Positions 22,533 through 24,168 of a stretch of 25,762 nucleotides of DNA are shown here, piece by piece (positions within the stretch are counted from its first letter, which is position 1; every line of letters starts with the position of its first letter). Under the pieces are notes generated by a model. That model was not told the DNA's origin, searched no databases, and worked only from the letters and a program-made list of their open reading frames with translations. The translations under genes were made by a program, and so were the position numbers. The DNA is from Bacillota bacterium (lineage in GTDB: Bacteria; Bacillota_I; Bacilli_A; RFN20; CAG-826). The DNA lies in NCBI GenBank assembly GCA_016872075.1, contig VHBF01000001.1:1-25762 (forward strand), read 5' to 3'.

Positions 22533-22544
22533 TTACTTCTTTTT
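22521..22544. repeat. 24-bp perfect palindrome formed by the abutting 3' ends of the dNK gene and udk
   Basis: AAAAAGAAGTAA|TTACTTCTTTTT, with the two stop codons at the centre. Confidence 0.85.
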
Positions 22545-23180
22545 TTTCTTTTCTGCTTGATGAAATTCAGATACTAGTGAGGCAACTTTGGTCAATAATA
22601 AGTCGGTTGCTTTTGGGTTAAATGCGCCTTCAGGAACGATAATATCCGCGTGGATTTTTGAGGGTTCGACAAATAAATCATGCATTGGTCTAACCGTTTG
22701 AAGATATTGGTTAGTAATGCTCTTAAAATTACGACCACGTTCTTCAATATCCCGTTTCACACGTCTTAAAACTCGAATATCAGCTGGAGTATCGACGTAA
22801 ATTTTAAAGTCTAACATCGTTAATAATGCAGGGATTGCAAACGTTAGAATTCCTTCAACGATAATCACAGGAGCAGGGCTTGTTTTAATCGTTGCATTCG
22901 CTCGAAGATGGTTTTTGAAATCGTAAGTCGGTTGTGGAATGGCAGTGCCGTTTTTTAAAGCATTTAATTGTTCGAGAATTAACGTTACATCAAAAGCATC
23001 GGGATGATCGTAATTGAGCGCCGCTCTTTTTTCAAAATTTAAATCGGTACGATTACGATAATAATTATCCAAACGAATAATCACCGCATTCCCGTTACCT
23101 GATTCAGAGAGTAAGACATCTGCCAAGGTTGTTTTACCTGATGCAGTGCCGCCAGCAATCCCAATGATGATTCGTTCCAT
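22533..23180 (-). CDS. udk: Uridine kinase
   Basis: IGIAGGTASGKTT, DNYY, NYDHPDAFD, YDFKNHLR, IIVEGIL, RVLRRVKRDIEERGR, VRPMHDLFVEPSK. Confidence 0.96.
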   Translation of the reverse strand: MERIIIGIAGGTASGKTTLADVLLSESGNGNAVIIRLDNYYRNRTDLNFEKRAALNYDHPDAFDVTLILEQLNALKNGTAIPQPTYDFKNHLRANATIKTSPAPVIIVEGILTFAIPALLTMLDFKIYVDTPADIRVLRRVKRDIEERGRNFKSITNQYLQTVRPMHDLFVEPSKIHADIIVPEGAFNPKATDLLLTKVASLVSEFHQAEKKKKK

Positions 23181-23217
23181 TGTTGATAATCATAAATAAA
23201 AAAGGTCATCGTTTCAA
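23181..23217 (-). promoter_or_regulatory. Sigma-A promoter of udk embedded in the upstream terminator
   Basis: TTGAAA (23217-23212), exactly 17 nt, TATGAT (23194-23189), 8 nt, ATG 23180; no SD. Confidence 0.6.
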
Positions 23218-23256: not shown

Positions 23257-23394
23257 TTAACCGCCACGACCGCCCGGACGTCTGGTCATTGGTTTTGGCA
23301 TGGTGACAGGTGGGCGATTGCCAACTGGTTTTGGTTGATTAGGTACAAACGGAGTTTTGTTACCTTTCATCGGTGGAATAAATGGTTTTGGCAT
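23257..23394 (-). CDS. Unannotated 45-aa proline-rich, cationic small protein
   Basis: MPKPFIPPMKGNKTPFVPNQPKPVGNRPPVTMPKPMTRRPGGRGG*. SD AAGGA upstream of ATG 23394; starts 16 nt after the upstream stop; followed by a terminator. Below the ORF-track length cutoff. Confidence 0.75.
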   Translation of the reverse strand: MPKPFIPPMKGNKTPFVPNQPKPVGNRPPVTMPKPMTRRPGGRGG

Positions 23395-23410
23395 AATGAT
23401 TTCCTTAATT

Positions 23411-24058
23411 TTATTCTACATTAATTTGCGATAAATAGTGAGCAGTAATCGATTCAAGTGCATCGGCGATGGGGTTAATGGTTTCTGAAGCCGTACCAGC
23501 GGCAACGGTTTCATTTGCAGAAATCATAATTTCCCAAGCGTTAGCATAAACGGCAGCCTTTCCCTTTAAATCATTTTTAAGTGCATTAATAATGATGTCA
23601 CCAAAGTTTCCGTGTTCTCGGTCCTCAACCCCTTGAAAACCCAAGTAAATGGAATTAGCCAACCCCACTCTAAAACGGTTGGAGTTTCTTCCACCATTGC
23701 CATCGACTAAGGCTTCGTAAACAAACCCGTAAAAACTACCATCTAGATTAAATACTCTTTGGACTTCAATTACTTTAGTTGACGTTAAGTTTTGGGTTAA
23801 ATTTTCACTTACCGAATAGAACTGAGTCAGGGTTGCACCACCCATTGCAATTGACCATTTAGAATTTAAGGTGACGATTGTACTCGTCGCAGGAATCGAT
23901 GATGAGTTGACTTCACTTGATTGAATTTCGTTTGAACTGGTCGAAATGATAACGGTTGAAGTTGTGAATGCCACTGATGAAGACATCACATCAGATGAAG
24001 AAGTAGCACAACCCACGAGTGCGATACCGATGGCAACAAGGCGAATTGGTTTTAGCAT
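23411..24058 (-). CDS. Lipoprotein with a Ser/Thr-rich tether and an RnfG/FMN-bind-like C-terminal domain
   Basis: SD GGGAG before ATG 24058; lipobox LVGC; GFVYEALVDGNGG...RVGL...GFQGVEDREHGNFG...LKGK aligns by eye with RnfG-type FMN-bind domains. Confidence 0.6.
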   Translation of the reverse strand: MLKPIRLVAIGIALVGCATSSSDVMSSSVAFTTSTVIISTSSNEIQSSEVNSSSIPATSTIVTLNSKWSIAMGGATLTQFYSVSENLTQNLTSTKVIEVQRVFNLDGSFYGFVYEALVDGNGGRNSNRFRVGLANSIYLGFQGVEDREHGNFGDIIINALKNDLKGKAAVYANAWEIMISANETVAAGTASETINPIADALESITAHYLSQINVE

Positions 24059-24168
24059 AACAATCTTCTCCCTTTTTAAACTGAACTTCGATTGTAAATT
24101 CATAGAAATATGTGTCAGTTGCGTTTATTATATGTATTAAGGAAAAATAACGCATCTAAAATGCTTTT

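Follow-up and report, generated by a model that had tools for sequence, protein, structure and literature searches.

A conserved proline-rich microprotein gene between a lipoprotein gene and udk in freshwater Bacilli

Does a reading frame of 45 codons, lying between a lipoprotein gene and the uridine kinase gene udk, encode a protein of its own, and on what would so small and basic a product act? This question is raised by the window considered here, that is, the whole stretch of 25,762 nucleotides that was analysed, for the DNA of which lake metagenome DNA runs are listed and no RNA run. The preliminary description of this DNA had proposed a small gene hidden at this place and punctuated by a Shine-Dalgarno sequence (AAGGA), an ATG, a TAA and a terminator, and both the sequence and the folding of the region agree with that punctuation. 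The features concerned are these.

23257 to 23394, minus strand: coding sequence of the proline-rich microprotein (P0001), from ORF and translation, orthologues, dN/dS and codon-position variation
23402 to 23406, minus strand: Shine-Dalgarno sequence AAGGA, 7 nt 5' of the ATG, at the same place in 16 of 16 orthologous loci and in the distant locus L037
23196 to 23232, minus strand: terminator-like hairpin GGTCATC...GATGACC with a U-run, 24 nt past the stop of the peptide gene, from its fold energy

The frame is read from 23394 down to 23257 and consists of an ATG, 44 further sense codons and a TAA. The resulting peptide of 45 residues contains 13 Pro, 5 Lys and 4 Arg, with zero Asp, Glu, Cys, Trp, Tyr or His, which reproduces from the translation the composition reported before; its net charge is +9, and it has no hydrophobic stretch, signal sequence or membrane segment. 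The triplet PKP, encoded by CCAAAACCA, occurs three times in the gene (23383 to 23391, 23326 to 23334 and 23290 to 23298) and MPKP twice, and 16 nt separate the stop codon of the lipoprotein gene (23411 to 23413) from the ATG of the peptide, all as had been described. The Shine-Dalgarno sequence varies among the 16 orthologous loci between AAGGA, GAGGA and GAGGT. On the 3' side, the hairpin (23232 to 23202) has a folding energy of -13.5 kcal/mol (z = -3.1), a stability equalled by none of 200 shuffled sequences; a simple terminator scanner did not call it, because its loop is long. No overlapping ORF of at least 30 aa was found at the site on either strand. In order to provide a reference for the proline content, all ATG-initiated ORFs of 30-80 aa in the six frames of the 0.77-Mb assembly were considered (2,382 ORFs). 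The proline fraction of the peptide (0.29) was the highest of all, the 99.9th percentile being 0.22. A second cationic proline-rich ATG-ORF, of 36 aa with 22% Pro and a net charge of +7, is found on the minus strand of contig C90 (G000); it is a candidate and could be an off-frame stretch of a longer gene.

A six-frame search for the frame covered 40 relatives, among them 17 other genomes of the genus and members of 22 other genera. Sixteen of these 17 genomes yielded an intact frame of 44-46 codons; the other genera yielded none. The contig of the 17th genome begins 78 nt upstream of udk, just short of the peptide site, and its first bases, ...GCA GGA TAA, are compatible with the end of the ORF. 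Peptide length is constant at 44-45 aa in all copies, and the sole indel among the orthologues is a single codon. Compared with the window copy, the dN/dS values were between 0.04 and 0.15 in the closer species, with dS values of 0.8-1.5, and 0.4-0.5 in the three species farthest away, in which synonymous sites have reached saturation. Across the 16 distinct coding sequences the numbers of variable sites at first, second and third codon positions were 19, 20 and 36 of 45, that is, third positions vary about twice as often as the other two. The invariant residues P8, P18, R38, R39 and P40 each use four codons across the orthologues. Conservation of the frame in relatives with dN/dS below 1 had been named in advance as the check to be made; the frame is conserved, with dN/dS about 0.1.

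These numbers bear directly on the suspicion that such a frame is non-functional, being open by chance or conserved on account of an RNA or DNA element, a suspicion that a short ORF of low complexity naturally invites. What speaks against it is that amino acids are kept while synonymous sites are saturated, that the only indel is in frame, that every copy has its Shine-Dalgarno sequence, that the ORF is retained in a relative (L037) whose dNK is only 58% identical to that of the window, and that its proline content exceeds that of all other ORFs compared in the genome. We find this explanation hardly credible, and consider it nearly certain, from the comparison of sequences, that the reading frame is a real gene. 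The gene is hidden only in the sense that it is missing from the length-thresholded ORF track, the orthologues being annotated by NCBI and JGI, where they are labelled 'hypothetical protein' in MAGs named Bacilli or Bacillota bacterium.

All carriers are freshwater MAGs (lakes, rivers) of about 0.7-1.0 Mb, and throughout the genus the gene order is fixed as thioesterase, one or two lipoprotein genes, peptide, udk and dNK. The gene is core rather than mobile, because this order is fixed among housekeeping genes and phage contigs carry no copy, and because the peptide diverges about as much as dNK does (51-57% versus 58% identity in the comparison with L037). A phage origin was rejected, as no relative of the peptide was found among the IMG/VR phage contigs. 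Taken as a whole, the comparison describes a translated-looking core gene, vertically inherited in a single lineage of freshwater Bacilli whose genomes measure about 1 Mb.

The orthologues also show which parts of the peptide are kept. A first conserved block spans residues 1-20, with the core IPPM[KR]GxKxPFxPxQ, and a second one residues 34-43, KPxxRRPxxR, with RRPxxR as its core. Residues 21-33 are nearly free to vary and the total length is nevertheless fixed. The PKP repeats and the C-terminal RGG to which attention had been drawn are present in the window, and their conservation is partial: only the first and last PKP copies are partly conserved, the central one being replaced in orthologues by PKQ, SPS, ANN or PPK, the second MPKP is mostly VPKP or VQKP, and the terminal GRGG becomes GRNG, GRSG or NRGT. 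An AlphaFold2 model made with the family alignment had zero secondary structure and a pTM of 0.18. The peptide is thus predicted to be disordered, without secondary structure, in agreement with the earlier guess.

Searches for relatives returned little beyond the family itself. No Pfam or NCBIfam family was found up to E = 10, no match in a PDB sequence-profile search at E <= 10, and nothing relevant in an Rfam search of the window and L037. The exhaustive profile search of 1.84 billion cluster representatives gave three clusters, namely the family itself, a fragment and a divergent peptide of 45 aa (P0019), and an ESM Atlas feature search gave unnamed clusters only, with scores of at most 0.86, below the useful range. 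When 301 genomes of the order were searched with the profile in six frames, nothing credible appeared outside the genus; the remaining matches, among them one to a YidD-like ORF and others that lay antisense or out of frame, were at chance level. By these searches the family is an orphan, with no relatives outside it and known before only as a hypothetical protein, which bears out the remark that its family could not be named.

Several candidate relationships were rejected on the way. The sole weak match to a paralogue in the genome, on contig C62, runs antisense to an ORF of 418 aa and was dismissed as spurious. Membership in YidD (PF01809) was rejected, the likeness being of 18 residues only and the peptide having neither Cys nor a Pfam match. 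The stretch in question (G291:C51:21935-21988, L042), in G291, a genome of the taxonomic family, surrounds ISPMKG near the N-terminus of a typical YidD-like ORF of 81 aa and resembles the N-terminal block of the peptide at chance level; its E-value of 1e-3 per genome corresponds to about 0.3 matches expected over 301 genomes. A search for YidD (PF01809) found none in the 41 genomes of the order covered (24 of high quality), and the idea that the peptide replaces YidD was discarded, there being no such pattern when all 41 relatives lack YidD.

What the peptide may do has to be judged partly from its surroundings, for which the following features of the window are needed.

23411 to 24058, minus strand: lipoprotein gene with an RnfG/NqrC/FMN-bind-like fold, from the lipobox LVGC, AlphaFold2 and Foldseek
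24091 to 24118, minus strand: promoter-like sequence CTGACA-16-TACAAT preceding the lipoprotein gene and the peptide gene (its sole basis is a scan in which 10 of 12 consensus positions matched, which is not evidence of function)
22533 to 23180, minus strand: udk, uridine kinase (Pfam PRK family, E 1.8e-36), the conserved downstream neighbour

The lipoprotein, which carries a Ser/Thr-rich linker, has no Pfam match. Its AlphaFold2 model has pLDDT values of 70-90 over the folded part, and Foldseek relates it to FMN-binding-domain, RnfG and NqrC proteins, with a best AFDB cluster E-value of 1.5e-8; against RnfG chains of the PDB the probabilities were 0.94-0.97, with weak E-values. The label 'RnfG-like' given to it before is therefore a reasonable one. 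Homologues of 212-215 aa start at the ATG at 24058, which is likely the true start (215 aa) rather than 24103. The gene is confined to the lineage of the peptide, where its evolution is fast, at 30-85% identity, and where several sister species carry it in tandem copies, and it lies directly upstream of the peptide gene throughout the genus. The two are probably co-transcribed, the peptide being the last cistron of the unit in the window; their products would be expected on different sides of the membrane.

On the other side, udk follows the peptide gene at every locus of the genus and has no Shine-Dalgarno sequence of its own. A promoter-like pair, TTGAAA-17-TATGAT (window 23178 to 23217, minus strand), overlaps the terminator of the peptide gene and ends 8 nt before the udk ATG. 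This distance, together with the missing Shine-Dalgarno sequence, suggests that the udk mRNA is nearly leaderless. In the main subclade the spacer between peptide and udk consists of the hairpin and U-run with the TTGAAA-17-TATGAT pair embedded in it; the hairpin is absent in L016-L018 and L038, and in L054 (4120-4150) the udk ATG lies only 7 nt past the peptide stop, where the last codons of the peptide, GGTGGA, could serve as a ribosome site for udk.

A different context is offered by the divergent peptide P0019, which is encoded on a 5.6-kb contig, L037, with a GC content of 44.6%. The dNK of this contig is 58% identical to that of the window, compared with 85-98% within the genus, and the peptide itself, also of 45 aa, shows 51-57% identity and keeps I6, P7, P8, M9, G11, K13, P15, F16, P18, P35, R38, R39, P40 and R43. 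Its gene has a divergent MFS_3 gene upstream and a convergent gene for a membrane protein of 211 aa downstream, and possesses its own ribosome site (GAGGAG) and its own strong, bidirectional terminator (z = -5.7). Neither the lipoprotein gene nor udk lies beside it, and dNK is 1.6 kb away. Directly upstream of this peptide gene we also observed a structured stretch of about 130 nt (L037:2062-2200, plus strand; MFE -47.9 kcal/mol, z = -3.0) that ends in a strong GC-rich terminator hairpin. It belongs to no Rfam family and is a single sequence that could be a riboswitch or a small RNA.

The arrangement within the genus would suit a cis-acting leader or arrest peptide, in which translation of the ORF or stalling of the nascent chain controls udk downstream. 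In every genome of the genus the ORF immediately precedes udk and shares its strand, udk lacks its own Shine-Dalgarno sequence, a hairpin stands between both genes, and in L054 only 7 nt separate the two, with final codons of the peptide, GGTGGA, that are SD-like for udk. The known arrest peptides SecM, MifM and the RAPP-type ApdA/ApdP likewise show conservation of their amino acids. The main weakening point is that the L037 copy keeps the motifs with no downstream gene to control, having just a convergent gene behind a bidirectional terminator; that the regulated gene should always be downstream on the same transcript holds in the genus and fails in L037. Besides, the layout between the two genes differs among species (with a hairpin, without one, or with only 7 nt), the 24 nt between stop and hairpin place the latter outside the stretch that a terminating ribosome covers, folding of the region showed no alternative antiterminator pairing, and both ends of the peptide are conserved instead of merely the last residues in the tunnel. 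We regard control of udk by this route as very unlikely. A solitary copy with its own Shine-Dalgarno sequence and terminator indicates that the peptide is selected for itself, not as a leader of udk, and that it does not depend on sharing an operon with the lipoprotein. The evidence favours a peptide that acts in trans, as judged from the sequences compared.

Among trans-acting possibilities, an exported, leaderless, bacteriocin-like peptide directed against the ribosomes of other bacteria would give a role to the neighbours, the lipoprotein serving for immunity or binding and MFS_3 for export. In the current definition, proline-rich antimicrobial peptides (PrAMPs) have at least 25% Pro and a net charge of at least +1, a PRP motif being indicative and antimicrobial activity with an intracellular target (DnaK or the 70S ribosome) essential (PMC7736402). 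The peptide has 28.9% Pro (13/45) and a net charge of +9, which accords with this composition; a PRP motif is absent, and exchanging PRP for PKP in apidaecin and drosocin costs only a 2-fold loss of activity (PMC7736402). The fast evolution and tandem duplication of the upstream lipoprotein gene, and an MFS_3 gene that adjoins the peptide gene in L037 and is 3-4 kb from it in the genus, would also be in line with such a function. Yet secretion is disfavoured because any export signal is absent; there is neither a signal or leader peptide nor a dedicated ABC exporter nor a modification gene. The fold of the lipoprotein is FMN-binding/RnfG-like and not a known immunity fold, and the L037 peptide gene has no lipoprotein gene beside it. 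Bacteriocin loci are usually patchy and mobile, and this is a core, vertically inherited, slow-evolving gene among housekeeping genes; planktonic cells with 1-Mb genomes would, moreover, be unlikely bacteriocin producers. Altogether we hold an antibacterial export product to be very unlikely indeed.

More consideration is due to a regulatory microprotein whose linear motifs would recognise a specific protein (Udk, dNK, DnaK or another cytoplasmic enzyme), even though we think it unlikely. The gene is found near udk and/or dNK in every context, dNK being 1.6 kb off even in the rearranged L037, and the 7-nt distance to the udk ATG in L054 is an arrangement typical of co-produced partners. With a hydrophobic core between Lys residues, K-P-F-I-P-P-M-K, the peptide fits the general rule for segments bound by DnaK, for which the work of Zahn et al., as cited in PMC7736402, is one source. 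The carriers are, however, all close kin, and their common neighbourhood may reflect nothing more than synteny by descent; most species have a terminator between the peptide gene and udk, the L037 locus has no udk, and nine positive charges with zero negative ones suit a nucleic-acid ligand better. A prediction of the complex between Udk and the peptide gave 'no answer' with a score of 0.00, which counts neither way.

The reading that we place first, tentatively, has the ribosome or rRNA as the target. The peptide would stay in the cytoplasm, as suggested by the lack of a signal sequence and of a membrane segment, and would act in trans as an extended ligand with two anchors. Two invariant stretches, IPPM[KR]GxKxPFxPxQ at the N-terminus and RRPxxR at the C-terminus, would attach to a polyanionic partner, and the proline-rich part between them, variable in sequence and strictly constant in length, would act as a spacer. 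The likeliest partner would be the ribosome or rRNA, with the peptide lying, for instance, in or along the nascent-peptide exit tunnel, in a manner resembling that of RTOF or of proline-rich antimicrobial peptides acting from inside the cell. RTOF (Rv1155a, DUF5302), the ribosome tunnel occlusion factor of M. tuberculosis, is a small, mostly unstructured and lineage-specific protein that occupies the exit tunnel of ribosomes not engaged in translation (bioRxiv 10.1101/2024.11.25.625233). We rank this target first because the charge is +9 with no negative residues, because the N-terminal [FY]-I-P-P resembles the YLPRP and YIPQP cores of exit-tunnel binders, because PKP can replace PRP in apidaecin and drosocin, because RTOF provides a known case of a tunnel filler made by the bacterium itself, and because a fixed length suits a channel-spanning peptide.

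Other evidence points away from the ribosome. The likeness to proline-rich peptides that bind it does not go beyond composition: when the peptide was aligned to nine PrAMPs, the scores were no better than those of a shuffled peptide (z <= 2), and the analogy with apidaecin and oncocin drawn in the preliminary description is reduced by this to a compositional one. Nor is there a match to DUF5302/RTOF or to any other Pfam family at E <= 10. A basic, proline-rich linear motif could also be bound by many other partners, such as DnaK, DNA or a specific enzyme, and a ribosomal role gives no explanation for the constant siting between the gene of an extracytoplasmic lipoprotein and udk. We also rejected the idea that the peptide stands in for a missing hibernation factor, since 16 of the genus's 17 genomes have HPF (PF02482) and there is no gap to fill. 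The full version of the ribosomal reading, an endogenous proline-rich ligand that threads the exit tunnel or binds rRNA through its two anchors and so silences or protects idle ribosomes, is in our analysis an unlikely proposition; it would make the peptide a self-made bacterial counterpart of the PrAMPs or a Firmicute analogue of the mycobacterial RTOF.

Small proteins are under-annotated, and very few disordered proline-rich ones with a known role exist in bacteria. The present one is unusually well supported as a gene by strong selection, fixed length and two anchor motifs, and its retention in genomes of about 1 Mb suggests that it earns its keep. It is confined to an uncultured lineage. 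If it binds ribosomes, bacteria other than Actinobacteria would be seen to apply tunnel-plugging or PrAMP-like chemistry to ribosomes of their own, and the peptide would offer a natural scaffold of 45 residues for translation inhibitors. If the partner is another one, the two short invariant motifs would define a new linear-motif interaction.

There are known systems with which the peptide can be compared. With RTOF it shares a similar size (45 aa versus about 60 aa), restriction to one lineage, a cytoplasmic location and a mostly unstructured chain; RTOF also has functionally important Arg residues near its C-terminal end. RTOF differs in having an N-terminal helix and being actinobacterial, no sequence relationship is detectable (the peptide has no DUF5302 match in Pfam at E <= 10), and ribosome binding has been demonstrated for RTOF and is a proposal for the peptide. 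The PrAMPs (apidaecin, oncocin/pyrrhocoricin, Bac7 and abaecin) resemble it in having at least 25% Pro, strong positive charge, no predicted fold and P-basic-P triplets, and its [FY]-[IL]-P core (FIPP) may be set beside the YLPRP and YIPQP of PrAMPs. They are, however, secreted and processed host-defence peptides of eukaryotes that enter cells through SbmA-type transporters, while the gene described here belongs to the core of a bacterial chromosome and encodes no signal peptide. The small basic proteins that associate with bacterial ribosomes, such as Sra/bS22 (45 aa, in E. coli), RMF and bTHX of Thermus, are not proline-rich; they have size class, strong basic charge and a restricted taxonomic range in common with the peptide, and no sequence similarity to it.

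The arrest and leader peptides SecM, MifM, TnaC and the RAPP-type ApdA/ApdP are short ORFs upstream of another gene. The likeness to them lies in amino-acid conservation, upstream siting and Pro, Gly or Arg near the C-terminus; the differences are that the peptide has no RAPP/RAGP motif, that its intergenic layout is variable and that the distant orthologue has no downstream gene. Finally, SEP1, SEP2 and SEP5 of Pseudomonas stutzeri are proline-rich proteins of less than 50 aa that are proven to be translated and form an operon with a DUF6338 gene, and they are reported not to be conserved beyond the species (PMC10433244). Like them, the peptide is barely annotated and lies next to a larger conserved gene. 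A partnership with DUF6338 was rejected, as there is no such gene in the vicinity and no Pfam family matches the 211-aa neighbour in L037. The peptide is one of the loosely known bacterial proline-rich small proteins, and it differs from the SEPs in its context and in its deep conservation, across the genus and beyond and under strong purifying selection.
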